Assembly: GCA_964016885.1 (NCBI GenBank)
Contig: OZ024743.1
Coordinates: forward strand, 234,732,001 to 234,796,000
DNA from: Eledone cirrhosa
Taxonomy: Eukaryota
Length of the DNA stretch: 64,000 bases
Reading direction: 5' to 3'
Both the position numbers and the translations under genes were made by a program. Below the pieces are notes generated by a model. It had not been told where the DNA came from and did no database searches. It worked only from the letters and a program-made list of their open reading frames with translations. Shown piece by piece: positions 2,343 through 52,811 of this stretch (position 1 is the first letter of the stretch; every line of letters starts with the position of its first letter).

Positions 2343-2702
2343 ATGCCACATTGTATAGCCCTAGGCTGCACGAGCCATGATGGCCGAGTGCCTCGCCACA
2401 TTCGGTTGCATTGTTTTCCCAGGGATCGAGAGAAGTGTCGAATCTGGGCACAGAACGTGGGTGTCGACTATGGCCAGATGGATAGTTTTTTAGACATAAC
2501 AAGTTCAGACATTCCTAAAATACGGTGCAAAATTCGAATCTGCACGCTACATTTCGAAAGTCAATATTTGGAAGTCGGCTTCCGCTGCAAATTACCGCGT
2601 GTTAAATTGAAGCCTAATGCAATACCCACTCTCTTTCTGGATAACAATGGATCTTTACCACAAATACAAACTGATGATGCACAGCTTGACAATCGGATTG
2701 AT
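2343..2702 (+). CDS. Variable exon V1: complete THAP zinc-finger domain
   Basis: MPHCIALGC..LHCFP..W..ICTLHF..LKPNAIPTLF (C2CH plus AVPTIF box); 120 codons then GAT|gtaagg donor, phase 0. Confidence 0.9.
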
Positions 2703-2755
2703 GTAAGGGTTACCTTTTGTTCATTTTTATGGATTATTATTAATGTTATATATAA

Positions 2756-2946
2756 GGGTGGTGGATTGGCAGTATCGGTAGAGGGTCGGACGCCATGCTT
2801 TCCAGCATAGTTACGTCCCTTTACGATCTGAGTTCAAATCCCTCCGAGGTTGACTTTGCCTTTCATCCTTACGGGGTCGATAAAATAAAGTACCAGTAAT
2901 GCACTGGGTAATTGCTGGCCTTGTGCCTAAAGTAGAAACAATTATT
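2756..2946 (+). mobile_element. tRNA-derived SINE, full length
   Basis: A-box-like TGGCAGTATCGG, B-box GAGTTCAAATCC; near-identical copies at 22642, 30806 and 51157; flanked by direct repeat TTATTAATGTTATATA. Confidence 0.85.
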
Positions 2947-3729
2947 AATGTTATATATATATATATATATAGGCGAATTTTGTGTCGGGTTCAAATTTCA
3001 TCTTTCCAGTATAGATTGATAAATTAACTGTGTGGGTAGTCTCGAACTAATCTAAATAAATGTATTTTGCTGTTTAAGATAGTAGTTACAGCAGAGAGAC
3101 TACAATCATTTTTTTAGTTACGTCCCTTGAAACTTTTGAGTTCATTTCCCGCCAGGTTTGACATTGCTTTGCATACCATCACTCGATAAGATCAGATATT
3201 AGTTTTTCACCAGAGTGAATTTTATTGAGGCGCAGGTATAATCGTCAAAGTAACATTTACATCATATAAGGTGATAAGTACAACAGATAGGTTTACGTAT
3301 GTAATAAATAGCTCAAACACATTGGCAGAACAAAAAACTTCTTCCGGCTAAAGTGAAATGTCTTGTTATAATGAAAACATGCAATTCTTTTATTTATATA
3401 TTTAATGTAGTGAGTGGGTTGTCAATATCGTTAGACAAAATGCCTTGCGACATTTAATGACGGCCTTTTGTGTTGTTGTTTTTTTTTGTTTTTTTAAAAT
3501 ATTTGTTAGCGTTGATTTTCTGGAGTAGATAAAATTAAAATTCCAGTCGAATATTCTGTCAGTTTAGTCGACTATATTTTCAAGTAGTAAAATGAAAATT
3601 TATTTGTAAATTATTTTGAAGAAATGAACAAGATTCTTTTTCTGACAGATTTTGAATACAGAGCTGGAACTAATATTATATCTTAAGTATGATCATTTGG
3701 TACCTGGTATGAGTATCGATGCTTCCCAG

Positions 3730-4372
3730 ATGGGCATCAATACAAGAAGCGATAGTTAAACTTGAGCGAGTGGTTGGTCCACTCCTTCTCGAGCCTTGAC
3801 TTAAAATGTTGACTGGGGGTGCGTCAACTGTTTCTCGTTTGAGGTTGTTCCAATGGTTGATCGCACGTGCAGAAAAGTGGTTCCTCAGGCTTTGTTGGTG
3901 TTGCACCTGGAACTTCCGATTGTGTCCGGGTAGTCCTGTTGAGTGCCTCTCTGAATAGTGCATAGCCGCAGATGGGACACCTTATGTACTGTATTTTATC
4001 GAACTCTTAGTATTTTAAAGGCTTCTATGATGTTTGCTCTCTGCCTCCTATACTCCAGCGTCGGGAGTCATAAAGCCTGAAGACGTTCATTGTAGTGTAG
4101 TGAATAGAGCCTCTAGACAAGGCGTGTTGCTCCTCGCTGCACATTTTCAATAATGCCCTTGTCTGTCTTTAACTTGGGTGCCCATATAACGGAGGCATAC
4201 TCAAGGTGTAAACGTATGCTTTTGTATAGGAGTGTGAAGGACTGTTTGTCCAGTACAAAGGTGTGCTTGAGAGCACCCAAAGTTCTATTTGCCTTGTTGA
4301 CTTGTGCTCGTATATGACTGCTAAATGTTAGGTCATGGTCGATGGTAACTCCCAAGTCTTTTTCTTCTATTC
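3730..4372 (-). mobile_element. CR1-like LINE 3' fragment (pseudogenised)
   Basis: EKDLGVTIDHDLTFSSHI..KANRTLG..LEYASVIWAP..IENVQRGATRLV and FSARAINHWNNL, typical of the CR1 ORF2 C-terminus; frameshifted. Confidence 0.8.
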
Positions 4373-7001: not shown

Positions 7002-8144
7002 ATGGATACTTTTACTGTTAATAAGCAACATAAGGTCGTACCTAAAAATACGAAACGTGCCAATGAAAAAGCGGCCCGTGCTTTACGCGAGTATTTGAAA
7101 GATAAGAGTATGTCCCTTGATTTTGAATGTTTGGATGCCAAAGAACTGAGTGAGTTGCTGGTAGTATTTTACCGTGATGTACGAAAGCGTGATGGGGATC
7201 AATACAAAGTGACCAGCTTGGAAGGTTTCCGGTACGCGCTTAACAGATACTTTCGGCTTCCACCGTATCTCAAAACATTTGATATAATTAAAGATGAAAT
7301 ATTTGAAGAAGCTAATGTTAATTTTAAAGAAACTGTTAATGAACTGAAAACTAGCGGCAAAGGTGAAGTGGCCCATCACCCTATCATTTCGGATGAAGAC
7401 ATCGAAAAATTATATTCATCTGTTTATTTTAACACAAATACTCCTTTAGGCTTATTGAATAAAGTTCAGTTTGAGATCCGGTTATATTTCTTCCGAAAAG
7501 GGCCCCAAACTATGGTAGAGATGACTAAAAGGACGTTTCAGGTTCGAGTTGATTCGCAAACTGGGTATAAGTATATGTGTAAAGCCGAAGAAGAATCGCC
7601 ACGTGGTTTGAAAACAAAAACCGTATCTGTGAGTTCTGGTTCCATCTGTCAAGCAACGGGCCCATCTACAATCGACATTGAAGAATTAACGTACATCGTT
7701 GAGAGGCCTAATGATCCAAATTGTCCTGTGAAATCATTTGAAAAATATAAGAGCAAACTCCACCCACTTTGTCACCGCTTATGGCAAAGACCTATTTCTC
7801 CTTATTCGCCTGAAGGCTCTGTTTGGTATCGAAATATTCCTGTGGGGAGAAATACATTGCAAAGATTTATGCCTGAACTTAGTCTTGCCTGTTCACTCTC
7901 ACAAAAATACAGCAATCATTCTATTAGAATAACTGGTTCGAATAAGACGGTTTTATCTGGGGGCTATAATTTTACTTTACCATATGGAAAAAATTCTTAT
8001 CTGGACGATAACATTTTAGAGAGCAAATCCAATCAGTCTTCACGCTCTGGTACAACACCTTTAGCTTACTCTACACATGTTCAGAATATTGAGGATTCGG
8101 ATGATGATGTAACATTAATACGGAATCTTACTGAGAAGGATCAG
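7002..8144 (+). CDS. Variable exon V2: Crypton/DUF3504 tyrosine-recombinase-like domain
   Basis: VPKNTKRAN..FYRDVRKRDGDQYKVTSL..TPLGLLNKVQF..CPVKSFEKY..WYRNIPVGRNTL..YSNHSIR; 381 codons then CAG|gtaggt, phase 0. Confidence 0.88.
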
Positions 8145-9852: not shown

Positions 9853-10059
9853 ATGGTGAAGCGTTGTGCGTGGGGTTTGTGTAATACAGACGATCGTTAT
9901 CCCGAACGTTTGTTGGGTGGTGTTACATTCATACCATTTCCTAAACCGAGGAGACAACGGGAAAAGTGTCTTCGTTGGATTGAACGTTGCGGTCGAATTC
10001 CCGAGCAACTGAACGTTAACATTGTTGACGGAAACAAAAACCTTTACGTCTGTTCAAAG
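9853..10059 (+). CDS. Variable exon V3: N-terminal part of a THAP domain (ends at CSK)
   Basis: MVKRCAWGLC..FIPFPKP..CLRWIERCGR..YVCSK; 69 codons then AAG|gtaaat, phase 0; lacks the Zn-ligand His. Confidence 0.88.
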
Positions 10060-11369: not shown

Positions 11370-11576
11370 ATGGTAACTAAGCGTTGCGCCTGGGGTACAT
11401 GTCGTAGTGACAGTCGGTACAAGCATAAACCCCATATGCTAAACGTGTTTTTCATATCTTTCCCTAAGCCTAAGAGTTCTTTGGAGCGTTGTATACGTTG
11501 GCTTGCTGCTTGTTGCAGACCTTACTATCAACTGAATATTAATAAAATTAAATCTCACCACTTCGTCTGCTCCAAG
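11370..11576 (+). CDS. Variable exon V4: N-terminal part of a THAP domain (ends at CSK)
   Basis: MVTKRCAWGTC..FISFPKP..CIRWLAACCR..FVCSK; 69 codons then AAG|gtaagc, phase 0. Confidence 0.88.
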
Positions 11577-12137: not shown

Positions 12138-12593
12138 ATGTGTTTGTCAATGTGCTCTAAGAGTAGTGTTGTGACCGTCCCAGGGAGGGCCAAAAAAGAG
12201 CGTAAAACACTAACAATTGAGGACAAAATAGATGTGATTCGTCGCCTAGAATCTGGTGAGCGTCGCTCGAATGTCTGCAGGACGTTGGGCTTAGCACCTT
12301 CTACTGTATCAACGATTATGAACAATGTTGATAAAATAAAGCGTACACACAGAGGAATTGCAAGTGTGTCATCGCCCAACACAACTTATTCACGTAACGA
12401 GACAATGGAGAAGATGGAGAAATTGTTGGTGTCGTGGGTTGATAATATGAACCGAAATAAGGTTCATGTGAAACCGGCTGTAATTATGGACAAGGCGAAA
12501 TTGTTATTTGATGAAATACGTGAGGAATCGGGTAGCACTAAAACATTTAAGGCCAGCAAGGGGTGGTTTCAGCGATTTACAAAAAGGACCAAA
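12138..12593 (+). CDS. Variable exon V5: Tigger/pogo CENP-B-type bipartite HTH domain
   Basis: RKTLTIEDKIDVIRRLESGE..LAPSTVSTI..MEKLLVSWV..FKASKGWFQRF; AAA|gtaagt donor, phase 0; start ATG could be 12138 or 12150. Confidence 0.88.
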
Positions 12594-13271: not shown

Positions 13272-13469
13272 ATGGTGCGCCGATGTGTGTGGGGTTTGTG
13301 TAATGCCGATGAAAGATACCCAGAACGGATAAATGGTGGATTTTTCATTCCTTTTCCTAAACCACGTACAAAACTAGAGAAGTGTTTGCGTTGGATTGAA
13401 GCATGTGGTCGGCCGTACTCTCAGCTAAATGTATTCAAGATTGATCAGAATAAATATGTCTGTTCAAAG
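13272..13469 (+). CDS. Variable exon V6: N-terminal part of a THAP domain (ends at CSK)
   Basis: MVRRCVWGLC..FIPFPKP..CLRWIEACGR..YVCSK; Kozak-like cgccATGG; 66 codons then AAG|gtaagg, phase 0; clear paralogue of V3. Confidence 0.88.
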
Positions 13470-21344: not shown

Positions 21345-22470
21345 CAGTCCCCGTGTTACGAACGTCCATATTTGCGTACCGACTTCCGTAATCCTGTTTT
21401 CTTTTATTACAGCGGACTACTTTGCCAATTACATCAAAACATTGCGCGTTTTTAGCAGTTCATCGGTTGTAAGAGTGACAACGCTACGCCGTCGCCATTT
21501 TAAGCTATTTCACGTTAACTGTGTGTATTATTTGTGTCATTTGACGTTAATTTTGTTTGTTCCCATAACCATGCATCCAAAGCGCAAATGCGATGGAAGT
21601 GGTGGTGATAAATTTAAAAAAAGAAAAACTATCACAATTGAAATTAAAGTGGAAATAATAAAGCGGTCGGAAAGAGGTGAAAGGCCTTCGAGCATTGGAA
21701 AAGCATTAGGCTACAGTCCGTCAACTATCGCGACGATTTTAAAGAACAAAGTGAGGATAATGGACCATGTAAAAGGCTCTGTCCCAATGAAAGCTACAAT
21801 TATCACTAAACAACGCAGTGGTTTAATTAATGAAATGGAAAAGCTGTTGGTAATTTGGTTAGATGATCGAAATCAACGTAATATGCCCATTAGCCTTGCT
21901 ATTATACAAGAAAAGGCCAGAAGCCTTTTCAATATTTTAAAAGCTGTGCGTGCAACAAGTGAAGGTGATTGTGAAGAAAAATTCGTTGCGAGTAGGGGTT
22001 GGTTTAATCGTTTTAAAGGGAGGGTAGATTTACACAAATTTAAAGGAATGAGAGTAAGTGTTAACCTTTATCTTTTTCTGTCTCAACTGTTTAAGAAGTG
22101 TTTTTAAAGCTAAACACATTTGTTCTAACTCTTTGCGTTTTGAGTTCGAATCCTACTAGAGTCAACTTTGCTTGTCATCCTTATGTCGATAAAATAAAGT
22201 ACCAGTCAAATACTATGGTCAATTTAATCGACTGACTCTTTCCCTAAAATTCCGGATATTGTGCCTACATTAGAAACATCATTACGACTAATTTTGCCTT
22301 TCATCCTTACGGGGTCGATAAAATAAAGTACCAGTAATGCACTGGGTAATTGCTGGCCTTGTGCCTCAAGTAGAAACGATTATTACGACTAATTGACGCG
22401 AAATACGTAACTGTTCCGACTTAAAGGCAATCGTATGAACGGAACGATTACGTAGCCCGGGGATTGTATG
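21341..22470 (+). mobile_element. Tigger-like transposon relic with degenerate TIRs enclosing V7
   Basis: Left TAGGCAGTCCCCGTGTTACG versus reverse complement of 22451-22470 CATACAATCCCCGGGCTACG (14/20 identical); encloses a Tigger HTH exon; SINE pieces inserted at about 22130-22385. Confidence 0.6.
21571..22053 (+). CDS. Variable exon V7: Tigger/CENP-B-type bipartite HTH domain
   Basis: MHPKRK..KKRKTITIEIKVEIIKRSERGE..STIATILKNK..EMEKLLVIWL..FVASRGWFNRF; 161 codons then AGA|gtaagt, phase 0. Confidence 0.9.
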
Positions 22471-24337: not shown

Positions 24338-24514
24338 ATGGTTCAGTCGTATGTCCGGAAAACCGACAACGGAAAGTGGTCATCTAGCCAGATGGTTTCT
24401 GCTGTCTCAGCAGTACTGTCTGGAAGTCTCAGTATTAGGAAAGCTGCTGAGAAGTTCGCAATTCCTAAAGCTACACTTGCTCGACATTATAAAAAACCAT
24501 GCTATTCTTTCTTA
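24338..24514 (+). CDS. Variable exon V8: pipsqueak-type HTH
   Basis: MVQSYVRKT..WSSSQMVSAVSAVLSGSLSIRKAAEKFAIPKATLARH; 59 codons then TTA|gtaagt, phase 0. Confidence 0.85.
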
Positions 24515-26189: not shown

Positions 26190-26285
26190 CATTTTGTTGG
26201 TGGCAATGGACCTACACGAGACCACCCTGATCCTCTACCTGTTAGACCAATGAATGTTCTCCATTCCACAGCTGGCTACATAGAT
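26190..26285 (+). CDS. Shared internal exon S: C-terminal part of a THAP domain
   Basis: ttttgttttcttcag|CAT TTT gives HFVGGNGPTRDHPDPLP..YID|gtaagc; 96 bp, phase 0-0; matches HFIGQNGPTPEHPDPIP in the unsplit THAP exon V16. Confidence 0.88.
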
Positions 26286-32480: not shown

Positions 32481-32657
32481 ATGGGAAGGCCAAGGAAATA
32501 TGCTACCGAAGAGGAGCGTCGTGCTGCGAAAGCCATGAGAGAAAGGGCCCGGAGAGAGAGAGAAACTGCAGAAAAAAGGAGCAGTCGTTTGGAAAAAATG
32601 AGAACGTCTGCAGTAAGGAGAAGACGGATGCGTACTAGTATTGGCAATTTTGCTAAG
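32481..32657 (+). CDS. Variable exon V9: basic AT-hook-like / STPR-like peptide
   Basis: MGRPRKYATEEERRAAKAMRERARRERETAEKRSSRLEKMR; 59 codons then AAG|gtaatg, phase 0. Confidence 0.75.
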
Positions 32658-33614: not shown

Positions 33615-33950
33615 ATGCCTTCTTGTGTTGTTGTAGGTTGTAAAGTAAGGGCTACCAAAGAAAATTCTGCACTCGGCTTGCGATTGCATAGATTCCCACG
33701 AAACCCCTATCGGCGACAGTTGTGGATGAATGCTATAAACAGGCCGAACTGGATTGCTAGCGACAACGACCGAATCTGTGGCTTGCATTTCCATAGCCGA
33801 TACCCCATAGCTAATATAGCAAGTATTGATTATGTCCCTACGATATTTTCGACACGGCCATACGACGAATCTGACCTTGTTGCCAGACAAAGACTGAAGT
33901 GTTTCCAATTTGCTATCAACAGTGCCACGAGATATCCCGATATTTTTATT
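33615..33950 (+). CDS. Variable exon V10: complete THAP domain
   Basis: MPSCVVVGC..LHRFP..WMNAINR..RICGLHF..DYVPTIF; 112 codons then ATT|gtaagt, phase 0. Confidence 0.9.
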
Positions 33951-35573: not shown

Positions 35574-35948
35574 ATGGTTACCCGTTGTGTTGTCCGCGGT
35601 TGTGCGAAGGCTAAGCAGGATGGCGTGAGTCACCATAAGTTTCCGCAAAATAGTGTTTGTAGGAGAGTCTGGATTGAATTTGTCCGTAAAACTCGTCCTA
35701 ATTTCAGATCTCCATCGATGTTCACTTACCTCTGCAGTGATCATTTCGAAAAGGACATGTTCAGTATCTCCAGCTTGAACCGTATCAAATTAGGATTATC
35801 TCACAGGTTCCAGCTAAAATCTACCGCTATACCAACTATACTTTTCTCGCAAAAGACAGTCAACTGTCAAGTACGCAACTACAACGAAGAAACAGATGTT
35901 GGTAAAAAGACGATAATGTCGCCTTCTGGAAAGTTACATCTACTCCAG
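35574..35948 (+). CDS. Variable exon V11: complete THAP domain
   Basis: MVTRCVVRGC..HKFP..WIEFV..LCSDHF..LKSTAIPTI; 125 codons then CAG|gtagga, phase 0. Confidence 0.9.
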
Positions 35949-36143
35949 GTAGGAGATGGCCCTAATTAGACACGCATGCGTGCAAAACTTGTTTTGTAAA
36001 TTAATATATAATTTATTTAGGATTAATGAAAGTATATTATTTCTAATGAATTGTTTGCTATTGAACCAGACGCTGGCCGCGTTTCAAGATTCCCCGTCCT
36101 TTTGGGTATATATATATTAATTGTGAATTCATCATGACATAAT

Positions 36144-36410
36144 CCTATTTGGAGGTTCCATTAAAGTGGGGGTTCTAGACAGGAAATCGAAAAATACTTG
36201 CTGACTGTTTCTGTGGAAATATGCTAATTTTGTTTAGTTTTGCTTCCATTCTTGCTATTCTCACATTTTGCATTAATAAATTCATTTTCAGTCGAAGATA
36301 TTCCGTAAGTATAATTTCCATTACCTTTCACAATTCTGATTTTCTAGTTTAAATGTTTACTGTTCGATTTCCCGTCTGGAAATGTCGCATTAATAGAACC
36401 TAAAAATAGG
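36144..36410. mobile_element. MITE-like element with ~48-bp imperfect terminal inverted repeats
   Basis: CCTATTTGGAGGTTCCATTAAAG..AGACAGGAAATCGAA versus reverse complement of the right end CCTATTTTTAGGTTCTATTAATG..AGACGGGAAATCGAA. Confidence 0.6.
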
Positions 36411-37569: not shown

Positions 37570-38022
37570 ATGTCGTTACTTGGTGCTTCGAGTTCGTTTA
37601 CGAAACGCAAACGAACCTATTTGACATTAGAAACTAAGTTAGAGATTCTTGAACGGGCCGAATCTGGTGAAGGTTCGTCTGCATTAGGTCGTGTGTTCGG
37701 TGTTGGGGAGAGCACTATACGTTCAATCAAGAAGAATGCTGATAAGATAAAGAAATCAGTGTTATATTCTGCACCGTTTAACGGAACTATAACCAGGATA
37801 GGAAATACCGCGTTGAAAAGAACTGAGAGAGTGCTTGGTGCATGGATTACAAAACAACTTCAGGACAAGAGTTTTAGCCTCAGCACGGCGAGTATTAGAG
37901 ATAAAGCACTGGCTATTTACGAACGTTTTGTCCGTGACCAGGGTGGAAGTTACGAACCTTTCGTTGCTAGCAAAGGATGGTTAAATAATTTTCTCAGGCG
38001 TACAGGCTTTGGCTGTTTAAAG
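37570..38022 (+). CDS. Variable exon V12: Tigger/CENP-B-type bipartite HTH domain
   Basis: KRKRTYLTLETKLEILERAESGE..GESTIRSIKKN..ERVLGAWI..FVASKGWLNNF; 151 codons then AAG|gtaaat, phase 0. Confidence 0.9.
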
Positions 38023-38311
38023 GTAAATTCTACAATTACTAAATATCATTGTATATATACATACTTTTCTTCCTTTTCAGTCATTTGTCTGCGACCCACT
38101 CGCATATATTCAATGAATGCCTTTTTTTCCTCCATAACTATAAATCGTACCTTTCCGGATATTTCCGGAGTAACCTCCCCACTCTTAATGACATCACTTT
38201 AGTGCAACACTGTCGCCATCTTTGTGTGTTCTGTTAGTTAAGGCTTGCAGCAGCAGCTCATACAAAGAGAAAAGTTTTCATATAGTAAAGTTGAAATTTA
38301 AATGATAGCAA

Positions 38312-38623
38312 ATGGTTCACTGTGTTGCTTTCGGTTGCAGTAATCAAACAGGCAGTGGTAGAAGCTTTTTTCGCTTTCCTGACAGCAACACAAGACCACA
38401 TATATACAAGGAATGGTTATCAAGGGTTAATCGGGCGGAATTTATACCTTCGAAATATTCTAGTTTGTGTTCTGATCACTTTGAACGAAACTGTTATGTA
38501 AAAGACCCTAATTTACTCAAACACTGGGGCATAAAAATAAAACAGAGGCTAAAACCGGATGCAGTACCAACTATCTTCAACTTCAAACCAATCCGACGGC
38601 GTGGAGCGAAGAAGCGGTTTGAG
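38312..38623 (+). CDS. Variable exon V13: complete THAP domain
   Basis: MVHCVAFGCSN..FFRFP..WLSRVNR..LCSDHF..LKPDAVPTIF; 104 codons then GAG|gtagat, phase 0 (weaker donor, so the end is less certain). Confidence 0.85.
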
Positions 38624-39011
38624 GTAGATACAATAAAAATATCGCTTGTATCACTCGTGTGTGATGTGACCTACCTTGATTTCAGATTTGGCAAGCGCAT
38701 TTACTTTCGTTATTTCATACATATTGCCATTTCCTGCATAAAAAATTATGTGACTTAACTATTTTTCTTTCTTTCGTCTCTATTTTAATTCCGGATATAT
38801 TCTCTTTTTCGTTCGTAAGTTTAACTACTGTAAGCTTTTTTTCTTTTTTCTTTTTATATTTTATATTTTATCCAAGACTTACGTCCCTTGGTCAGTCACG
38901 TGATAGTATTGGTGTAGGCATAGTCATTTCCGCTCAATTATCAAATTATTTGTTTGCCTGTCTTTTTTTAGGGTTGCCTAACGAGCTTGATTCGTGTAAT
39001 TTTTTTTTATA

Positions 39012-39380
39012 ATGGAGACTACTTGCAAGGCGAAGTGGTGGTGTATAGTACATCAGTGTAGCTCTGATTCACGTAAGAGTGTTAGTGTTTATCCATTTAT
39101 GCGTGGTGTTCGCTTTTTTCCTTTTCCTACTGCCAAGAAAGATCCGTATATGCGTCAGCTTTGGACGAAGCTAGTAAGACGTGGTGACAACTGGGACGGT
39201 CCAAAAAAGCATCATCGCGTTTGCTCTAGGCACTTCAAAGATGGAGAGCCTAGCCTTCAGAACCCTGCTCCAACTATTTTCCCGTGGACGCCTGCTCAAA
39301 CAATCTTTCCTAAAATTGATTTCAGAGCGCGGCATAGTAAAATGCTTTATGGTGGCAAAGATGTTATTAAATCTCTTCAA
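39012..39380 (+). CDS. Variable exon V14: complete THAP domain
   Basis: WCIVHQCSSD..FFPFP..WTKLVRR..RVCSRHF..NPAPTIF; 123 codons then CAA|gtaagt, phase 0. Confidence 0.9.
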
Positions 39381-39684
39381 GTAAGTGTTTTTTTTTGTTT
39401 TGTTTTTCCACTACTTACCGTGTTAAAGTGGGTTTCGTTGGATTTTACCTAAATATTTCATATTCTACCTTCATCGTCGATTCTTACATCTCGGGTATGC
39501 AAAGTATTCAAATATCCGTTGTTTTCTCATTGATTTTTTCCAACCGTTTTTATTGATTGTAGGAACTGGCTTGCCTTCCATGAGCATGCGCATTCAAATG
39601 TCATGTCTATCTGCGTTTTTCCGTGTATGAAATAGGCAATAGAAATATATATTAAAGGATGGTATTATTTCATCCAACGTTGAG

Positions 39685-39838
39685 GGCGGTGAATCTAGCA
39701 TAGTTACGTCCCTTTACGATCTGAGTTCAAATCCTGCCGAGGTTAACTTTGCCTTTCATCCATACGGGGTCGATAAAATAAAGTACCAGTAATGCACTGT
39801 TTGATTGCTGGCCTTGTGCCAAAAGTAGAAACAATTAT
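39685..39838 (+). mobile_element. tRNA-derived SINE, internally deleted
   Basis: Same family as 2756; flanked by direct repeat TTATTTCATCCAACG. Confidence 0.8.
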
Positions 39839-42336: not shown

Positions 42337-42591
42337 GTGTTACAACATTATAAGAAGACTGAGGGTGGCAGGAAAAACTATGCAAATAGTCAGGAAATGG
42401 CTGATGCCTACAACTCAGTAATGAAGAAAGAGATGTCTGCTTACCAGGCAGCTAAATACTTTGGTGTTTGTAAGAAGTCTCTTCTGAGGAGAGTTAGAGA
42501 AGAAATTCCGATTAATGCGCATGTAGGAAGGAGGTGCACTTTATTCCCTGATCAAGAGTTGAAGCTCGGAGAGTGCTTGAAACTTTCAGCG
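42337..42591 (+). CDS. Variable exon V15: pipsqueak-type HTH (pogo-like transposase N-terminus)
   Basis: ttttttcccttcag acceptor; EMADAYNSV..MSAYQAAKYFGVCKKSLLRRV..GRRCTLFPDQELKL; weak GCG|gttcgt donor, phase 0; start ATG 42397 or 42313 uncertain. Confidence 0.7.
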
Positions 42592-44556
42592 GTTCGTTGA
42601 CTAATTGTTTTTAGTCCTCCAGTCCTTTGACTCACCTATTCTGTGTAGATTTGGATACTTTTAACGGGGTGGGGGGGGGGGGGTTAACATTTACGCGACC
42701 TCACCATCCGGTCGGATACTCGTTCGTGAAGGATACTGCTGTCGAAATAAATGTAAGAACGTCTACGTGGTCGATCGATCGACTAGATACAGTGGCTCTT
42801 TTGATCATGAAAAACACACCTAAGGCAATAACCATTCCTTAAGTCGAGATAGATAGATATATATATATATATGTGTGTGTGTTTCTCTATTTCCTGCGTA
42901 CTCTCTGGTGTCGAATACCCACTCATCCAACCTCATTAAATTTTGCTAATCTATCTCCGGCGGAATTTTTTTTTTTTTTTTTTTTTGAAGTGGTAACATT
43001 CCTGCGACAATTTTCTTTGGACATTAAAAAATCATACATCACAAAGAAGTGCGTCACTAGAAATACCATACGTTATAAAATGAATAGGATGGGTCAATGA
43101 CTTCTTTTTTTTAATCAACGGAGATAACCTAGGGGAAAAAACATCGATTTTCTAATCCCGCCTGTTATTTGGAATCCAAGAGTAGATTTAACATTCTTCA
43201 CCTGTTTATTAACACTAAAAAATGTAACTGCAGTTTAGCCCACTCCCACGCCCCGTGCGTCCACCTCCCACAACTTGGATGAAATTTTTCAACGTTTTAG
43301 ATTATGTTCATGACATTTATAAAAATATTTTCTTATATTTTTTATTCGTGTTTACCGAATGTTTTCGGTTTGTAGTAGACAAAACGTAAACTCAGCTTTT
43401 TTTTCGTTGTACCTTCAAATTTTTTTTTTTTTTTTTATGTGGCCATTGTCGAATCTCAACCTTTCGAAATATATCCGCAAAAGTTCATTAAAACATGCGT
43501 TAAAGTTATGAGGAAACAGAGTGTAGTTACGTCAAATTATTTGCATAGATTGAATAACATTGCCATAAAATTAATTAGAACGTCCACTCCCGCTAATGTA
43601 ACAAGAACTGTAGTAACAATTGAGATGTTAGAATTAGAAGGCTTCTGCGAGAGAAATTAATGCGAATAGGGAAATATAATCCAGCCGATCCCGAGCTATC
43701 AGCATGTCTCTCTCTCCCCATCTGCTGTGTTCATGATAATTATGTAAAATCTTGCCGTTTACATATTGTAAAAGTTTTAAGCCCACGGGTCTTTTCTGAT
43801 ACAGCGAAATACTAAATAGCTTTGTTATTTCGGTCATATTATTGCAGTGTTTCTTTTTGTTTTGTTTTTTATCTTTGCACTGAATAGACTGAGCAATACT
43901 ATTACTACTACGACTACAGTATTTAGGACAAGTTCTCTGACAAAGGCTCTTTCCTCGGCTGTTGCCATAGTAATACTATTGCTGCTGCTATTATTATTAT
44001 TACTACTGACGTGTTCAGCCTATCTACGTTAGCTTCTTTCCCTCGTTCACTACTGCTGCTATCAATGTGTTAACAGTAGCTTTTATCATGACTGGATACT
44101 GTATATTTTATAGGACAAGCTATCTCGTTGTGACTACCATTTTGTCCGCCATATTATGCAGTTTAGCAAAACAAAATGCTTGCTTTTTTTTCCCCCCTTC
44201 ACTCGTATTCCAGTAATATTCACTGAAAATTAAATAGAATTTCGTTCAGAAATTAATTTATTCAATTTATCGAATTTACTGTTATCACAAGATGATAGTA
44301 ATCAATAAATACTACTACTGTTACACCAGATTTAAACAACAAACAAGTATTGCAGTATATTCAACCTCATGACCAAGTTTTGTTTTTTTTCTTTTTGGTT
44401 GATTTTTTTTTTAAAACATACTAGATGAGTTTACTGTTATTGAAATATATATATAGATATATTCACATTGCTGAATAGATTTGTTGATATTTCTGTTGAA
44501 TCTGATGGAAGGAAGAACATATGATTAAAGACACTACCTAAACCGCTGTAAATAAA

Positions 44557-44829
44557 ATGCCGGCCAATCGTCACTGTAGCTATGGTACCTGTAAAAGTGA
44601 TAGCCGTTATCCTAACCGACCTCAAATGAAAGGGGTTTGGTGGATTCCATTCCCTAAACCTCACAAAGATTTCTTGAAGTGTCAGCGTTGGGTAAAAGCT
44701 TGCGGTCGATTATACTTCACGGTTAATAACATCAAACCATGGACATATTTATGTAGCTTGCATTTTATTGGGCAAAACGGCCCCACTCCGGAGCACCCTG
44801 ACCCTATACCGCTATTGGACTATTATCAG
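44557..44829 (+). CDS. Variable exon V16: complete (unsplit) THAP domain of the V3/V4/V6 subtype
   Basis: HCSYGTCKSDSRY..WIPFPKP..CQRWVKACGR..LCSLHFIGQNGPTPEHPDP; 91 codons then CAG|gttaat, phase 0. Confidence 0.88.
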
Positions 44830-45318
44830 GTTAATTATTTTTTTTTTTTTTTTTTTTTGTGTTATTGTTGTTGATATTTTTCGTTTGTATTTATTTTATT
44901 TTTTTAATCTGCAATTTTATTCGATTGATCACTTTAGCTATTGGTTTATCTCGAAATACATACTCTGTTTCATCTTGCTTATTACATAGCTATATAGTCG
45001 CCATGTAACAGTGTAATAGCTAGACCTATGACTACTGCTCTTCTTATTGGCTAGTTCATCTCACGTGGACCTACTACAGTCGGTCAATAGTCTACTGTTC
45101 CCCATGGGAAATAAGTATATGATGCAGGAAAATGGCGGTGGGAGACAGATGAGAGGAAACAGCAAAACAACGTAGCATCATTAACGTAATCCTTTACACA
45201 CATCGCTGCAGTCAGTTTTATTTTACTGAATGATTCTATATTTAGTTGAAGTTAGCAGTTATTGCAGATTGTTTATGGATTTCCTCATATAATTTCTTTT
45301 ATCTCTCTACCACTCAAC

Positions 45319-46320
45319 ATGGCGTCTGAAAGCTTAGGCGATTCACAACTACTAACACAAGAGCCTAAAACGTGTGTTTCCACAAACCGTATGAATGGTG
45401 TGGAGTTTATCGATTTAGAAGAATCCCTACGAACTCAAAATATTATCAAAAGCGCTGTCAAAATCTTAAAGGACTATTGTAGGACTCAGCACACTTCTTT
45501 ATCTATACTAGAAAAAAAGCCTGCTCAACAATTAAGCCGATTTCTGGAAAAGTTTTACACTGAGGTGCGCCAAGTTAGTGGTAAACTCTATGCCCGAAAA
45601 TCAATGATTACGCTACGTTATGGTTTACAGCGTCACTTCAAGAGAACTGCTCGCTTAGATATAATAACAGATGATGAATTCATTGAAGCTAATGAAGTAT
45701 TCAGTGTTATCCTGATGAAACTAAGGGCAATGGGCAAGGATGCTATTAAGCGTAAAAACCCTATTACAGAGGAAGATGTACAGAAAATTATGGTATCATC
45801 CGCCCTTGATCAGGACAAGCCACGGGGTTTGCAAAATAAAGTATTCATGGATTTAATGTTGCATATGTGTAGCCGCGGACGGGATAACCTGCGGGAGATC
45901 TCGAAACGAGACTTTAGTATCGAATTATCTCCTCAGGGTCTCCAGTATGTTACTTTTCGAGTTGGGGCTGAACTGAGCAGTGGTGTGGATGCGTCTGCTA
46001 ATGAAGTACGCATGTATGAAATACCGGGTAGTAAATTGTGCCCGTTGACATCTTTTAAAAAATACATTAACCTCTTAAATCCACTCTGCGATGCTTTTTG
46101 GCAAAGAAGTAAGCAGAATGTAAATCCAGATGAAATTCCATGGTATGATAACATGCCAATTGGCAAAAACACTCTGGGAACTCGAATGAAAGAGATTTCT
46201 CGAGAGGCTGGTTGTTCTCAAATCTACACAAATCATTGTCTGAGAACTACGCAAATTTCTACCTTAAGGATTTATAATATGGACTTACCTCAACAGTCAA
46301 GACTATCATATTCACTGCAG
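45319..46320 (+). CDS. Variable exon V17: Crypton/DUF3504 tyrosine-recombinase-like domain
   Basis: FYTEVRQVSGKLYARKSM..PRGLQNKVF..SRGRDNLR..CPLTSFKKY..WYDNMPIGKNTL..YTNHCLR; 334 codons then CAG|gtgggt, phase 0. Confidence 0.88.
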
Positions 46321-47398
46321 GTGGGTTGGTAAATTTAGATTGTCAGTTTCAGGAGTTTCTTATACTATTATTAAGTGTCCACATAATATTGCATTCAATA
46401 AGTTTGTACCTTTTTTTTTTTTTTTTTTTTTTTTTATGAGAAGTTGCTACTATCACAATTTGAACTATGAATGTGAGGACCAGATTTAAATTTAATAAAA
46501 TGGGAGGGTTTTTTTTTTGTTTGTTTGTTTGTTTTACGTATGTAATATTTGTGTGCATATATTAGTCTTGTGCTTACGAACCTAAGAGGGTATATATATA
46601 CACCCTCCTCTTCGGTTCGTTCGTTCATAAGCACAAGCTTCGCGTGAAGAAGAAAAGTACTATGACATTTTATTATATTGCTGACTAATTCACAGAGTTA
46701 ATTTTGTTTGGATCTTATTGAACAAAATCAACTACGATAGAAATAAGATTAACTTTGAAAACTACTCACAAATAAAATGAGTGTGGCATTGACAACGTAT
46801 CTCCGGGTCCTTGCAGCTGCGTGTACTTAATAGTTGGCGTAAGATTACAACTTGTAGTTTTGTGTTATTAGGCTGTGCGCAAGATTGCTAAAGGAGTTTT
46901 TACCTAGGGTTGTAACGACTCTTCTACAAATGCTATTGTGGAAGACGACGACTATCCTGTGTTCGTGTTAAGTTTGTCAACACAATAAACGGACGTACGC
47001 AGCATATCCCCATCTTAACAGTTTTCTGATGGGCGGTCGTCTCTAGCTGATCTCTTATCGTATTGGTTGTTCAGTCTGGCTTTCTTGCCAGTGGACAAGT
47101 CACAGCAGCAGTCTTCCTACTAGAGAACCAGTCTTTCTTGCTTTATCTAATGGCATACGACTAACTCAACGAACACGAGGTTCACAACCTGCCGCCATTT
47201 TTATTGCTCTCGTTTTCATGGAATACTTCGAGGCTATTTTTTTTTTTTTATATTTTACCCCCACCCTACAAAATTTTTACACTTCTTTAGCTTCTTTCAA
47301 TTCCCTTATAATTATCAGTCTAGTTTCTCTTCGCCGTTCATTATATCTAAAGAAATTATCTCGTCCGTTGCAGTAGTAAGCAAATTTTGTAATTTGTG

Positions 47399-47851
47399 AT
47401 GGTATTTGTTCGGAAGTTTAAGGGCCCGTCTTCTGAGGATAGTGTTAAGTGCCCTGTTCGATCGTGTCTAACTGCATTGAGTAAATTTCGCAACCTACCA
47501 AAACATTTGCGATCACAGCACAGATTTGACGAGCCTGTCGTGAAATCGATTGTAAATCGAATCAGGAACTGTGTTAAGGACGTTGAAGATTTTTGTGAAG
47601 ATAATCTACCGGAGAAAGTCGGGTCGAAGAGTAGCTGCAGTTATAGTCGATTTGATGTCGGTAACAAATTTCGACAGTCTACCTCCAACAGTGTCAGATT
47701 TGTAAATGAGACAAATGTAGCGTCCAGTTCCACCCTAACTTCTACCTGGGGATTCCACGGAGATTCTCCGTTCGAGTCTCTTCGGGATGCTTCTGATAAT
47801 ACGATTCACCATATACCTATGCCGCTGTCCGTTTCCATTAAACTGCCCCTG
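47399..47851 (+). CDS. Variable exon V18: single C2H2-like zinc finger plus Ser-rich linker
   Basis: CPVRSC-x12-HLRSQH; 151 codons then CTG|gtaagt, phase 0. Confidence 0.78.
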
Positions 47852-48138
47852 GTAAGTGGTCAAGGATATATATATAATATACATTATCAGATAGACAAAT
47901 TAGCTACGTGTTGAAATAGAAACTTTTTGTTGTAAGTAATGCAGATTCTATCAACACTACCCTCGGTGATAATCGCCTTTTTTTTCTTTATCTATTTTAA
48001 ATATATATAATTGACTTTTCCTAAGTCTTTCGACTGTTTACTTATAGAAACATGGTAATTCGGATGCAACACACTCCAATTGCATATTAAATCTTTTTTG
48101 GAACAATTTTTTATTATATAGGGCACTTGTCTTTGGAT

Positions 48139-48495
48139 ATGATCAATTCAAGGAGAATGGACATACCAGATAGTTTCCTATTTTATCATAATACAACATA
48201 CAATACCGGTGTCCTCGCACAGAAATGTAATGTTAGGTATACAAAATCTTCCCTCAGTTCTTTGAATGACCTCCAAAGAACTTATCCTTGGTTACTGGTA
48301 CAGTTACGTCCAAACCAAAATCCGTTAGCTAGCTGTGCCGTCTGCCAGAAATATTGGTTCTCTAGCACAAGGTCTGCTTTAAAAAATGCCTGGGTCCAAG
48401 GTAGTGTTGACTTGGGATCCAGCCATAGGAAAAGTAAACTTCTTCTACACGAGAAATCTGAACTCCATTCCAAGTGTATAGCACGAAGTTTAAAG
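48139..48495 (+). CDS. Variable exon V19: TTF-type (hAT transposase-like) zinc finger
   Basis: YPWL..CAVC..AWVQG..LLLHEKSELHSKC; 119 codons then AAG|gtaagt, phase 0. Confidence 0.8.
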
Positions 48496-49585
48496 GTAAG
48501 TAATTTTTCTAGTGGAAGTTAATTTCAATGAGGAAATTAAAAATCGTCGTTATTAGTTTTCATTAACCTACTTCGTTTCTCTTTTGACGAGTTTGCCGCC
48601 ATCCCATTATATTTGTTGTCGCTACTTGTTCCTTATTATTCTTTTCGTGTCACTAATTTATTCCGTTTCTGACTACAGTATATCTCTTTGAAAATTGTAT
48701 TGAATTCATTTATTTTATTTTTACTTTGTCAGCTGTCCAAAGAATGAATGTTTTACCTTTCATCTTGGGCAGTGGCCACATCCATTTAGTTTCAGTTTGT
48801 TTTCACTGATGTGCCATGAGTAAAATGTTTCTGAAGAATTAATTCCTCTTAGTTTCAATCACTTATTCGGTATTGTTTTAATAGTATTGTTCACTATTTT
48901 CATTATGATCTGCCATTAATCTTAAAGCTTATTGGTAATTTTATTTTCAGGTGGAATGTTTAAACAATATATGATACTAATACACAATATCACTTAGATA
49001 ATATATGTATTAAAAAGAAATTCAGGACGAATTGTAGTTTGATTTACTTGAAAAACTTTAATAAAAGACTGACAAGCATCGTTATGTTATTAAAAATAAT
49101 GTTAAGCCTTTGATCTAAGGCTTCCTTCTACATTTCTTTGTTCAACTGTTCTATTTATGAAATATATGTGTAGGGTTTCGATTTGTGTTTTAAGAAAAAT
49201 TCTTTTCGTATAACACAAGTTTGTTTCTTGGTAATATTGTCAATGAGAACTTTTAACAGGACTTCTCTCAACTAAAGTTACGTTTTATTTTGACTACAAT
49301 GGTGTTTGTCTGAGTTGACATGTATTGTGAAATGTGTGTGCCATGGGGATAAAATAGTTTGAGGCTGTCCTTTCTTTTGAAAAAATGTTTTCAACTGTTT
49401 GGAGAATGTTCTCTCTCTCTCAAGTGATTGACACTCCTGAGGCACAAACTTCACTCCATTATTGAAAAGGCTTCTTTTGGTCTCTCTCCAGAAATAGTTG
49501 CATTCATTTGAAGTACACATTTTTACCTGCCAGTGGAAGGCAGTTTCAGGAATATAATACTTACCACCTTTCAGGAGTTTATTAT

Positions 49586-49719
49586 TACGGCCCTTGCCAT
49601 TCTGAGTTCAAATCCCGTCGAGGTTAACTTTGCCTTTCTTCCTTACGGGGTCAATAAAATAAAGTACCAGTAATGCACTGAATAATTGCTGGCATTGTGC
49701 AAAAAGTAGAAACAATTAT
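49586..49719 (+). mobile_element. 5'-truncated SINE copy
   Basis: Same family as 2756. Confidence 0.75.
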
Positions 49720-49860
49720 TTAAAACAGTAATTTCTCAGTTAATAAATGATAATGATAATTCTCTTTTGCCCCAATGCAATGATATATAAATGAAAAGAA
49801 ATACTTGTTAAATTAATCTTTATACTGTGTCATGAAAATGCTTATATTTTATACTTGTAG

Positions 49861-50096
49861 GCAGGACCTTCAAACCAAGTTTTTTCCGGAAAACCTGAGA
49901 ACCCTAGACGAAAAAAAATTGCTGCTGCCACAGTCTCGTCTGCAACAGTACTCATTCCAGATGACTCACCTCCGCAACCTTCGCCTGCAAAAATTCAGAA
50001 GAAACAAATTGATGATCGCCGCTTTGATGAGCAACGCTTCCAGGAACAGCGTTTCCAGGAACGGAGGTTTGAAAATCGTCGATTTGATGACAGACG
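49861..50096 (+). CDS. Constant exon C1 of BTB/POZ protein
   Basis: tttatacttgtag|GCA, phase-0 acceptor; open frame AGPSNQ..PRRKK..DDRRFDEQRFQEQRFQERRFENRRFDDR with no Met; CG|gtatgt phase-2 donor. The ORF track shows a different frame here. Confidence 0.85.
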
Positions 50097-50487
50097 GTAT
50101 GTGGTTAATCCATTGCTTTCCCTCTTAAATTTGGACTTCACTTGTTTCTCTTCTAAACAATCATTTTAAGGCCATCTTCCCTGCCAATGTAGGGCTTATC
50201 CCAGCAGACCCCATTCTTCTATTGTCTTTAGCCATATCTTGAATTTTTTTCCACACATTGTATATTTTGTGTTTTTCTCTCTCTGAATGATATTCTACTG
50301 CTCCTCATTAGCACACCACCCAGTTACCTGAATTCTAATCTCTATTCCTGGCCCACCACCAACTCCAATCAACGTGTTTCTTGGGTAACAATAGCGAAGA
50401 GGCTGTTGAGTTTGTCTTGGGAATGGTGTGAATATGAAAGGTATGAAAACTATTTTCTTTTAAAGTAGTTGTAAATTTTCATTTTAG

Positions 50488-50794
50488 GCAAATGGTTAGT
50501 GCTCAGGCATCTCAGATGGCTGCAAAATCGTTACAAGTTTCTCAAATACCAGTCCAGCAACATATGAGTGTGCCTCAAGTATCTCAGAATATTACAAGGC
50601 CTGTCCAAGTGTTGGCTCCACCAGTTCAAATAAGCGAACCCAAACCAAAGCCTGTGGAAAAACCTCGGCCGCGGGAGAAACGAATATTTGTTGTTGCTGA
50701 TCATCAGCGTTGTGTTATGTCCAATCTAGCATCTCTTTGGAAAAGTGGAAAATTGTGTGATGCCGGTATTGGTAATGGCTCATCTACTGTGATG
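50488..50794 (+). CDS. Constant exon C2: Q/P-rich linker and start of BTB domain
   Basis: ttttcattttag|G CAA ATG completes the phase-2 codon of C1; HQRCVMSNLASLWKSGKLCDAGI; ATG|gtaagt, phase 0. Confidence 0.9.
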
Positions 50795-51156
50795 GTAAGT
50801 ATATTGCTCTAAACATTTGAGATTCTCTTAAACAACATTATCTCTTAACATCTTGTACTGCATCAAACTGTGTTAGCAAGACTTTCTTAAAAGGTACAAA
50901 ACAGCACTATTTACTCTAATATTTAGAAATTTAGATTAACAAACCATTTTTTCTGCTAAATTGTTACAGGATTTTAAGGATTAGAGAAATTTAGAGTATT
51001 TTCTTTAGACACTAAACCCTATTTCTTGTAAGGGGCCAATATGCTTTATTGAATCTAACTTAATTTCATTATTTGCACTTACGGCAATGCGTACCAGTAA
51101 TGCACTGGGTAATTGCAGGCCTTGTGCCTAAAGTAGAAACAATTATTTGCACTTAC

Positions 51157-51346
51157 GGCGGTGGATTGGCAGTATCGGTAGAGGGCCAGACGCCATGCTT
51201 TCCAGCATAGTTACGTCCCTTTACGATCTGAGTTCAAATCCCGCCGAGGTTGACTTTGCCTTTCATCCTTACGGGGTCGATAAAATAAAGTACCAGTAAT
51301 GCACTGGGTAATTTTTGGCCTTGTGCCTAAAGTAGAAACAATTATT
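51157..51346 (+). mobile_element. tRNA-derived SINE, full length, preceded by an extra SINE 3' end
   Basis: Near-identical to 2756; ATTTGCACTTAC occurs at about 51071, 51145 and 51344 (target-site duplication). Confidence 0.88.
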
Positions 51347-51737
51347 TGCACTTACTTTATAGACCCCCACTGGAAATGAAATGTATTAATTGATGATCTG
51401 GGACACAACCACCCTAGTTGCTTTTAAATCCAGTTACTCTGAATTATCACGTTTTATGTTGAAAGTGCTTTTGTATGCTTAGTAAATAATATGCAGGGCT
51501 ATATGGACTTAAAATTGAGTCATTCTTCAAGAAACATCTGAATTGCTCTTGTAAAATTTTCAATATGGTTTGTATTGATGAACCAATCATTATCCAAATC
51601 ATTTTCTTTTCATTGATCTATTTTTTGGTGGGGTGCAATGTGTATAGAAGTTTAGTTTTTCTATTTAAATGTGTTACCTTTATTTTCCCATTATTTACCT
51701 ACCATATAGTTAATTTCTTATATTTGTTCGATTTCAG

Positions 51738-52811
51738 GTTCATAAAGTTGTCCTGTCTGCTGTGTGTCCTAAACTGTTGTCAGTATTTAGTACAGATATT
51801 CTATCTCACAAATTTCTCCAAGTAAATTTTCCAGAAGAAGTTAGCACAGAAGCTTTAAATGCCTTTGCTGAATATATGTACAATGGGCTATTAGATATTG
51901 ATCCTGATATTTTACATCAGTTAAAAATCATTGCAAAACGTTTGGACATGAAAGAATTTGAACAACTGTGCGATAGCCGTCTTCCAAGCACAATACCTCA
52001 ACAACCGGCTTCAACGGTTACTGTATTTGGTGACCTCAGCCACATGCAAAGCAATTTATCAATCCCATCCAGCATCACAGTTCCAACAGTTCAACCATCT
52101 CTGCCTTCATCTTCCATCATATCAGTTACATCTCAATCTGCTCCATCTGTCACAACACAAGTCATTGATGTTAAACAAGAGATTTCTGAGGCTGAATTAG
52201 CACAAGTTAAGAAAGATACAGCTGCTGTCTTTGGACAGGAATCTGAGGTTGCTTCACTAGATGCTAGTAAGAGTGGAAATTCCTCTGGTGGTTTTGTCAT
52301 TGTTCCCAGTGTGAAAACTGAGCCTGTGGGGCCTGAAGATGACAGATATGGTCAACTTAATAATCAGTCTTACACATCCACTCCAGTTTCAATCAGTTCT
52401 CGCATAGCAAATACCAGTTTGAATTCTACGGTTGTGTCTTCTACAGAATTTGTTTTACCATTTTCAGACAGCATAGATAGCAATGCAACAACAAATGTGA
52501 TACATGGAACATCATCTAAATTAAAATCTAATGTATTTGAAAGCTCTCTAGTTTCTGACTTATCTCCTGTATCATGTATTGTAGAAAAAATGTGTTCTCA
52601 ATCCAGTCCCATAAGAGAAGACCCTTCTAAACCACTAAATCGAACTCTAACTACAACTCAGTCAATTGATAATATTGTAACATCTGGTAGCCATGAAGGT
52701 GTTTATCCGGTAGGACTTTTTACAGCAGGAGGAGACAGTTTACCATTATCATCATCACAAGTTACCAATGTTAAAAATATAGGTTTATATAAAACAGATG
52801 ATCTTACCTGA
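51738..52811 (+). CDS. Constant exon C3: rest of BTB/POZ domain and Ser/Thr-rich tail, stop codon
   Basis: atttcag|GTT gives VHKVVLSAVCPKL..VSTEALNAFAEYMYNGLLDI..AKRLDMKEFEQLC (BTB signature H-K-x-V-L, Y-M-Y-x-G); TGA at 52809-52811. Confidence 0.92.
   Translation, partial: VHKVVLSAVCPKLLSVFSTDILSHKFLQVNFPEEVSTEALNAFAEYMYNGLLDIDPDILHQLKIIAKRLDMKEFEQLCDSRLPSTIPQQPASTVTVFGDLSHMQSNLSIPSSITVPTVQPSLPSSSIISVTSQSAPSVTTQVIDVKQEISEAELAQVKKDTAAVFGQESEVASLDASKSGNSSGGFVIVPSVKTEPVGPEDDRYGQLNNQSYTSTPVSISSRIANTSLNSTVVSSTEFVLPFSDSIDSNATTNVIHGTSSKLKSNVFESSLVSDLSPVSCIVEKMCSQSSPIREDPSKPLNRTLTTTQSIDNIVTSGSHEGVYPVGLFTAGGDSLPLSSSQVTNVKNIGLYKTDDLT

Follow-up and report, generated by a model that had tools for sequence, protein, structure and literature searches.

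Introduction

In the clustered protocadherins, in UGT1A and in the sDscam genes of chelicerates, a tandem row of alternative 5' exons, each with a promoter of its own, is spliced to constant exons, and the variable exons of these clusters are paralogous. In Drosophila, mod(mdg4) and lola each make 20-30+ isoforms from one BTB gene through variable DNA-binding domains of the FLYWCH and C2H2 types, and the available text of the same source reports no TTK motif from molluscs (PMC11426971). Here we describe a locus of the octopod Eledone cirrhosa in a stretch of 64,000 nucleotides (contig OZ024743.1, here C4, positions 234732001-234796000; this whole stretch is called the window), which very likely represents one molluscan BTB transcription-factor gene with at least 30 isoforms produced via alternative promoters and built by the capture of transposase exons.

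The ingredients of such a gene are known, namely transposase capture, the DUF3504-BTB isoform of KCTD1, mod(mdg4)/lola and variable-first-exon clusters, and the proteins are in RefSeq. The 94 captures described as host-transposase fusions are scattered over numerous tetrapod genes; most use an acceptor that precedes the transposase, and KRAB is often the host domain. Neither 'BTB' nor 'invertebrate' occurs in the available main text of that study (Cosby et al., 10.1101/2020.05.07.082677). Isoform b of KCTD1 joins an alternative upstream, Crypton-derived DUF3504 exon to BTB, and KIAA1958 has alternative DUF3504 exons (PMC3212892). Mukherjee and Moroz (2023) gave octopus THAP-BTB, CENPB-BTB and Psq-BTB as separate gene names and called the BTB transposon-derived (PMC10027918). 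In the parts of that work available, 11 supplementary rows carry LOC106877732, neither the main text nor the five supplements contain the word 'isoform', and the single-locus architecture of what are the same proteins as those discussed here is not described. A literature search that covered main texts (also for six locus identifiers) and the supplements of PMC10027918, with subscription journals mostly uncovered, turned up no report of such a tiered array at a single locus.

Exon anatomy and splice routing

We use leader for an alternative 5' coding exon with a DNA-binding domain, and negative positions for DNA upstream of the window. An earlier note on this DNA had described 19 such coding segments, all on the + strand, and their intact frames and GT donors, where given, were confirmed. 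So was their downstream partner, exon C1 at 49861, which has a phase-0 acceptor and no Met and leads to a BTB domain in a constant region of 538 aa (C1, C2 and C3 sum to 1617 nt, i.e., 538 aa plus stop, by arithmetic on the splice contexts). The suspicion that the array extends beyond the window also proved right, as upstream DNA and an unplaced contig (C581) carry 12 more leaders; the whole locus thus holds at least 31 intact leaders, all on one strand and with intact frames, and the figure of about 19 isoforms was an undercount, even if the idea of many interchangeable heads on one BTB body agrees with the ortholog models discussed below. Approximately 290 kb of upstream DNA contributes five of these leaders and a shared exon, R, at -56258. 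C581 contributes seven, comprising one FLYWCH, four THAP (one of them with two exons) and two BrkDBD leaders, as well as shared exon Q; it probably fills an assembly gap at -71287 in the array, because a published table of O. bimaculoides scaffold coordinates shows the same order.

The single direct route to C1 drawn in the note holds for the leaders downstream of shared exon S, whereas the eight window leaders from 2343 to 24338 join S at 26190. A routing in four tiers, Q, R, S and C1, had been missed: each leader routes to the nearest shared exon downstream of it, and within the window those joining S are termed tier 2 and those joining C1 tier 1. This order is mirrored in the splice phases. 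A transcript enters Q in phase 0 and leaves it in phase 1; for R the phases are reversed, with entry in phase 1 and exit in phase 0, and entry into S and C1 is in phase 0. When the best-scoring GT between domain end and next stop was taken in 30 leaders, it lay in the required phase in 30/30 (next shared exon Q in 3, R in 5, and S and C1 in 11 each), with phase 1 donors in exactly the five tested leaders between Q and R. Random choice among GTs would give this result with a probability of 9e-13 for the 30 leaders and 4e-9 for the 19 of the window (product of per-exon fractions), a generous figure in that the domain ends were set by hand after some ortholog models had been seen; the donor matrix was also an approximation. 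Chance would hardly produce the change to phase 1 and the return to phase 0.

Most leaders would be first exons, as the note had it; the exceptions are two psq exons, which would sit internally, and at least two leaders that are made of two exons. For the psq exon whose donor had been put at 42591, the best-scoring donor is instead 42522, and since a strong acceptor (42336/42337) lies at its edge it is probably, judging from these signals, an internal exon.

The domain assignments were checked with Pfam, and 12 of the 19 window exons exceeded the curated cut-off (six THAP, three CENP-B_N+HTH_Tnp_Tc5, two HTH_psq and one DUF3504). Five more gave sub-threshold matches of the expected type, i.e., THAP at 9853 and 13272, DUF3504/QRICH1 at 45319, zf-C2H2_aberr at 47399 and zf-C17orf113 at 48139, and no relevant Pfam match was obtained for 11370 and 32481. 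Over all leaders we count at least eight domain types, in line with the seven or more proposed before, and paralogy is limited to subsets of leaders.

Isoform models and splicing

The ortholog in Octopus bimaculoides is LOC106877732, with isoform numbers up to X36, and its public models match the proposed single BTB gene with many interchangeable DNA-binding N-termini. The large BTB exon is 93-94% identical to LOC106877732 and to LOC115209932 of O. sinensis, and 81% to Argonauta. We retrieved 25 O. bimaculoides models (15 of the 32 members of the main ortholog cluster were listed); eight run through Q, five through R, seven through S and five directly to C1. In all 18 leaders that could be compared, the exon end coincides with the junction of the ortholog model, and identity to these models is 92% within the domains (1763/1923) vs. 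76% outside (504/661). The models cover 11 of the 19 window exons, including six of the eight leaders upstream of S. The THAP of isoform model X4 and the CENP-B of X5 were not found in this genome with the queries used, which, given the gap in the array, does not imply loss.

NCBI gene models are generally built from RNA-seq junctions. Spliced isoforms are predicted from the public gene models, and suggested also, independently of genome annotation, by sequencing-run contigs of 2.4-4.2 kb from paralogous genes, in which single frames lead from head to BTB and differing heads stand on one body. P0068 (THAP) and P0097/P0100 (ZSWIM3_N) have 828 aa in common at 99%, P0132 (THAP) and P0306 (FLYWCH) about 700 aa; the clusters or matches of these head-swapped genes include cuttlefish proteins, and the junction of P0068, too, lies within the THAP domain. 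Because the BTB of this gene family contains introns, we infer that the contigs derive from spliced RNA.

Contigs of four sequencing runs from one study, compared over 30300-50299, revealed no splice joint, the joint table there being swamped by a repeat. This repeat, short and very high in copy number (depth above 10^5), occupies array introns at 30.8-31.0, 39.7-39.8 and 49.6-49.7 kb. Run X4 comprises 88 Mb of contigs of unrecorded kind; some of them end at 38023 and 46321, a single base beyond two donors, and the larger runs continue past these points (all three at 38023; X1-X3 to 46401). Contig 31 has 24 letters unplaced after 48493, which is the number expected with 31-letter words if the leaders ending at 38022 and 48495, which have their 8 end letters in common, both join C1. 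These are weak hints at most, drawn from one study in which X4 contigs also cross two other donors, and neither the stops nor the 24 letters are counted as evidence.

Probable transposon origin of the leaders, and selection

The earlier note called the leaders mostly of transposon type. This has now been tested directly for split THAP and CENP-B leaders, the remaining classes being assigned on domain names. The split THAP leaders joined to S are 44-58% identical, over the matched stretch, to transposases with THAP, HTH_Tnp_4 and DDE_Tnp_4 domains, and the S motif is the natural THAP end in Harbinger-type transposases. The CENP-B leader at 21571 has 148 other genomic matches (at most 49% identical among the full-length ones), and two of three relatives examined carry DDE_1. 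In the second BTB gene described below, the HTH is kept alone, where the Argonauta paralog model P0124 has HTH and DDE_3. The nearest genomic relatives of two tested leaders are about 50% identical, with no close transposon copy, and a search beside the leaders with ten Harbinger-type tails and one DDE_1 query found no catalytic remnant at E <0.05. DUF3504 is Crypton-derived (PMC3212892), and the C2H2-like and STPR-like leaders need not be transposon-derived.

Growth of the array would have involved repeated capture of transposase DNA-binding exons, whose catalytic parts were lost, together with local duplication of leaders. Some leaders do stem from local duplication and are still under purifying selection: dN was lower than dS in 7/7 paralogous pairs (e.g., dN 0.032 vs. 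dS 0.50; dS is saturated in 5/7). Broken duplicates of neighboring leaders (split THAP at -2573, CENP-B at C581:77473-77761) and a Mos1-type HTH fragment at C581:78345 are possibly raw material and debris of turnover. The Harbinger-type THAP class also occurs in five fusion proteins from other animals (P0318, P0328, P0329, P0330 and P0327): its partner is a C2H2 array in those of hagfish, a cyprinid and Dreissena, and another BTB in that of abalone. These fusions are repeated captures of one transposase head.

One might object that each leader is either a fossil transposon or a small gene in its own right and that the junctions are annotation artefacts or splicing noise, given that the genome is rich in pogo/Tigger- and Tc1-like relics akin to some leaders and that the isoforms in E. 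cirrhosa are taken from public gene models. We consider this very improbable. All leaders share a strand, their frames are intact and their phases fit their tiers, their domains are 92% identical to those of another octopus and end at the same residue, the split THAP class is confined to the array (5 matches), the ten Harbinger-type tails matched no remnant in the region, and the DNA-like sequencing runs are at about single-copy depth over most exon bins.

Choice of leader

In the reading that we prefer, which also involves the simplest switch, most leaders would combine a start site of their own with a Met, a single DNA-binding domain and a donor, while lacking a coding acceptor. Transcription begun at one leader would then skip the later ones, because these have a donor but no acceptor, and the RNA would be spliced to whichever shared acceptor (Q, R, S or C1) comes next. 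The psq exons do accept upstream leaders, which makes isoforms with two heads possible and speaks against a pure form of this scheme. All isoforms would share the BTB and the tail of the constant region, whereas the DNA recognised would differ.

Separate promoters are suggested by the DNA before the leaders. The 300 nt upstream contain 5-16 CpG for 28 of the 31 leaders, as opposed to 1-4 for each of seven internal exons, and two of the three exceptions are psq exons with acceptors at their edge. Seven model cDNAs with 5' untranslated regions (UTRs), from the available supplement of PMC10027918, have no common 5' sequence, and four of these UTRs are, by eye, colinear with the DNA just upstream of the leader ATG.

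Several observations weigh against such an array of promoter-driven isoforms. Splicing in E. cirrhosa rests on public gene models and not on junction reads, the RefSeq XP_ models are predictions, and for 8/19 window exons no ortholog model was retrieved. Contigs of run X4 cross the donors at 39380 and 47851 unbroken (one each). Background DNA is itself not poor in CpG (per 300 nt, the median is 4 and the 75th percentile 7), and when 6-8-mers were compared between 29 upstream and 82 background regions no common promoter element was found, the best word occurring in 15/29 regions with an uncorrected p of 4e-5. For nine of the 31 leaders, the 150 nt upstream include an acceptor-like site that scores above the 90th percentile of the background; some leaders are therefore second exons, and their being skipped by upstream transcripts fits the scheme poorly. 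Finally, an older model, P0037 (1402 aa), strings six leaders into one protein.

The acceptor-like sites are also what would be expected if the isoforms were real and the leader was chosen by splicing, from one or a few non-coding exons far upstream or by trans-splicing as at mod(mdg4)/lola. In the same direction point the psq exon at -164057, which takes at least two different upstream exons in the models, and the leader of isoform X18, whose intact counterpart with the same exon end lies on another chromosome. Such a choice by splicing is nevertheless unlikely, as the model UTRs are private and four of them colinear with their own upstream DNA, CpG-rich DNA precedes 28/31 leaders, and all leaders are on one strand; of nine O. 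bimaculoides leaders on one scaffold, moreover, seven have a counterpart in the same order as here. The displaced X18-type exon has an in-frame partner in cis, aminoacylase-1. It is an intact HTH exon on the + strand of a chromosome contig also labelled C1 (C1:342788672-342789064), is 77% identical over 131 aa to the X18 head with the same end residue, and precedes the first coding exon of aminoacylase-1 by 127 nt, sharing its frame; it may be a moved leader, a new fusion or a candidate for trans-splicing. Overall, a switch by promoter choice is likelier than trans-splicing.

That the leaders are chained in one long mRNA encoding a multi-domain protein, as P0037 would have it, seems scarcely credible. 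P0037 enters the THAP leaders at sites that cut away their first zinc ligands, and 23 of the 25 retrieved RefSeq-type models hold at most one DNA-binding leader. Models X4 and X7 do chain a THAP to a psq exon, and psq 42337 could be added likewise.

Shared exons and the BTB domain

The split THAP leaders depend on S for their domain, as the fourth zinc ligand is supplied only once they are joined to it. Predicted models of the joined product reach a pLDDT of 77-93 over residues 1-80, and P0021, which is 97% identical to leader 11370, exceeds the THAP cut-off of Pfam together with S. Features of the locus are listed in Table 1.

Table 1. Leaders, shared exons and constant exons of the BTB locus. 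Positions are those of the window unless a contig is given; negative values lie upstream of it.
Feature	Position	Strand	Basis or remark
psq exon (counted as leader; internal)	-164057		upstream DNA
Shared exon Q	C581:41789		
Leader, CENP-B	-62566		upstream DNA
Leader, THAP	-25145		upstream DNA
Leader, DUF3504	-10893		upstream DNA
Leader, split THAP	-2281		upstream DNA
Leader, THAP, tier 2	2343..2702	+	Pfam 52.3 bits; ortholog model P0030 joins S
Leader, DUF3504 (Crypton-type), tier 2	7002..8144	+	Pfam 33.8 bits; models P0009/P0047 join S at same residue
Leader, split THAP ending VCSK, tier 2	9853..10059	+	model P0025; last zinc ligand His sits in S
Leader, split THAP, tier 2	11370..11576	+	97% identity to P0021; ligands C6, C11, C67, H70
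Leader, CENP-B_N + HTH_Tnp_Tc5, tier 2	12150..12593	+	Pfam; phase-0 donor; no ortholog model retrieved; start uncertain (ATG 12138 or 12150)
Leader, split THAP, tier 2	13272..13469	+	100% identity to P0022
Leader, CENP-B_N + HTH_Tnp_Tc5, tier 2	21571..22053	+	Pfam; genomic relatives with DDE_1
Leader, HTH_psq, tier 2	24338..24514	+	Pfam; model P0046 joins S; model UTR colinear with upstream DNA
Shared exon S (32 aa, C-terminal THAP part)	26190..26285	+	phase 0 in and out; 20/25 retrieved O. bimaculoides models
Leader, STPR-like basic helix, tier 1	32481..32657	+	no Pfam match; 44% identity to STPR-type leader of paralog P0069
Leader, THAP, tier 1	33615..33950	+	Pfam; donor phase
Leader, THAP, tier 1	35574..35948	+	Pfam; donor phase
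Leader, CENP-B_N + HTH_Tnp_Tc5, tier 1	37570..38022	+	Pfam; model P0001 joins C1
Leader, THAP, tier 1	38312..38623	+	100% identity to P0027, which joins C1
Leader, THAP, tier 1	39012..39380	+	Pfam; model XP_014782214 joins C1; UTR colinear
HTH_psq exon, probably internal	42337..42522	+	acceptor 42336; best donor 42522, alternative 42591
Leader, intronless copy of split-THAP class with own S-like tail, tier 1	44557..44829	+	sequence; Pfam
Leader, DUF3504/QRICH1-like, tier 1	45319..46320	+	sub-threshold Pfam; models P0008/P0044 join C1
Leader, single C2H2-like finger, tier 1	47399..47851	+	model P0006 joins C1; weak Pfam
Leader, zf-C17orf113-like zinc finger, tier 1	48139..48495	+	sub-threshold Pfam; donor score 7.9, phase 0
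Constant exon C1	49861..50096	+	no Met; phase-0 acceptor
Constant exon C2 (Q/P-rich linker, N-terminal BTB part)	50488..50794	+	splice contexts
Constant exon C3, coding part (remaining BTB, disordered tail, stop)	51738..52811	+	Pfam; structure model

The BTB domain is of the long form with an N-terminal extension, as judged from the structure model and fold matches to BCL6, PLZF, Miz-1, LRF and NS1-BP (the kelch-family protein NS1-BP being the top match), and the TTK motif FxLRWN is absent from its consensus. Past the BTB, Pfam identified no domain in the constant region, and the tail is predicted to be disordered (pLDDT mostly <50); an AATAAA follows at 53242, beyond the stop in C3. From the known behavior of such domains, BTB dimers would form between isoforms, and co-repressor binding or repressor activity would follow from the long-form type.

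A partial duplicate of the constant region lies at window +64640 to +64856, where the opening 27 nt of C1 run directly, but out of frame, into the latter half of C2 and both splice sites are retained. LINE-type reverse transcriptase fragments and a PHD-like finger are found downstream of the gene (54322-55056, 58236-58529 and 62019-62524), fragments of a similar kind recur across the fetched region, and two tandem satellite arrays with units of ~227 and ~472 nt lie 250-290 kb upstream (C4:234442001-234482000).

Paralogs, age and meaning

The BTB has many paralogs in this genome. One follows the window at C4:234803452-234841639 (+71452 to +109636, a region with an assembly gap at +78731) and has leaders with BrkDBD+HTH_Tnp_Tc5, FLYWCH, IS630/Tc1-type HTH and CENP-B domains. 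Two more, at C4:285.93-285.98 Mb, have small leader arrays (THAP, BrkDBD-like and two FLYWCH in one; CENP-B and BrkDBD-like in the other). Amid these leaders, at approximately C4:285964909, stands the decayed remnant of a DDE_3 transposase. Other BTB exons lie on C4 at 286.03-286.08, 297.95-298.33 and 312.38 Mb, and on contigs C7, C10, C11, C21 and C23.

Public models of LOC106879774, LOC106872008 and LOC115209549 have several heads each, and a similar layout is annotated in other octopuses, in cuttlefish sister genes and in abalone. The abalone gene LOC124116851 has the same design with isoforms to X14; the 12 models retrieved for H. rufescens have 12 different heads (THAP, FLYWCH, C2H2 and MADF), nine of them routed via an S-like exon and three without it, and five heads of this gene belong to the split THAP class. 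A P-x-N extension is common to S of octopus and abalone and absent from six other proteins aligned alongside. In a BTB tree (60 rows, by a quick method, the careful search being unfinished) the cephalopods form a clade with an SH-aLRT of 99, and the abalone rows are unresolved. We regard the octopus and abalone genes as likely orthologs; if they are not, the design arose twice in molluscs. Orthologs from bivalves or non-molluscs were not seen among the named matches (10 of 150 profile matches named, 8000 candidates scored), which does not imply their absence.

It is tempting to speculate, although we hold it as a tentative idea, that the locus serves as a permanent platform for capture and dates back at least to the split between gastropods and cephalopods: a DNA transposon landing upstream with the right strand and a phase-compatible donor would immediately gain a BTB effector, providing molluscs with renewable regulators that recognise transposons. 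If so, this gene together with its paralogs would be a functional counterpart of the KRAB zinc-finger clusters, cells would differ in the promoters they use, and heads would be paired in BTB dimers (31 heads would give ~500 pairs); in cephalopods, cell-specific promoter choice could provide a combinatorial code. Repertoires of transcription factors are counted by gene, and the locus would conceal approximately 30 DNA-binding specificities in one, so that one gene can act as a whole transcription-factor family. It further offers a clear natural example of transposases being captured time and again at a single site, some leaders being shared among octopods and others restricted to a single lineage, and makes it testable whether captured domains still bind their parent transposons.

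Comparison with known systems

Clustered protocadherins, UGT1A and sDscam differ from the octopod array in that their variable exons are adhesion or enzyme paralogs, whereas the variable exons here are largely unrelated DNA-binding domains, and the array has no conserved promoter element by the 6-8-mer screen. With the ZBTB factors the octopod protein shares the long-form BTB with N-terminal extension, but not the layout of an N-terminal BTB and a C-terminal C2H2 array, and no domain follows its BTB.

As in host-transposase fusions, a transposase DNA-binding domain on its own exon is spliced to a host regulatory domain. The exon is separate from those of the BTB (by exon anatomy and Pfam), relatives with catalytic domains exist for the split THAP class, for the CENP-B at 21571 and for the HTH of the next gene, and purifying selection is seen; the octopod locus, however, assembles ~30 heads at one address, via donors and onto BTB. 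KCTD1 and KIAA1958 have one or two captured exons of one type, as compared with three DUF3504 leaders among 31 here.

There is also a close likeness to mod(mdg4) and lola, where a constant BTB is likewise joined to many alternative DNA-binding exons. The earlier note had called the locus their mirror image, and this comparison is upheld: the Drosophila genes have an N-terminal BTB and variable 3' exons, while the octopod variable exons lie 5' with donors, the BTB is central and the stop lies in C3. The octopod gene differs further in a BTB without FxLRWN, in at least eight unrelated head types and in four shared routing exons. The insect design of one BTB and many DNA-binding domains thus exists in mirrored form in molluscs, on a non-TTK BTB.

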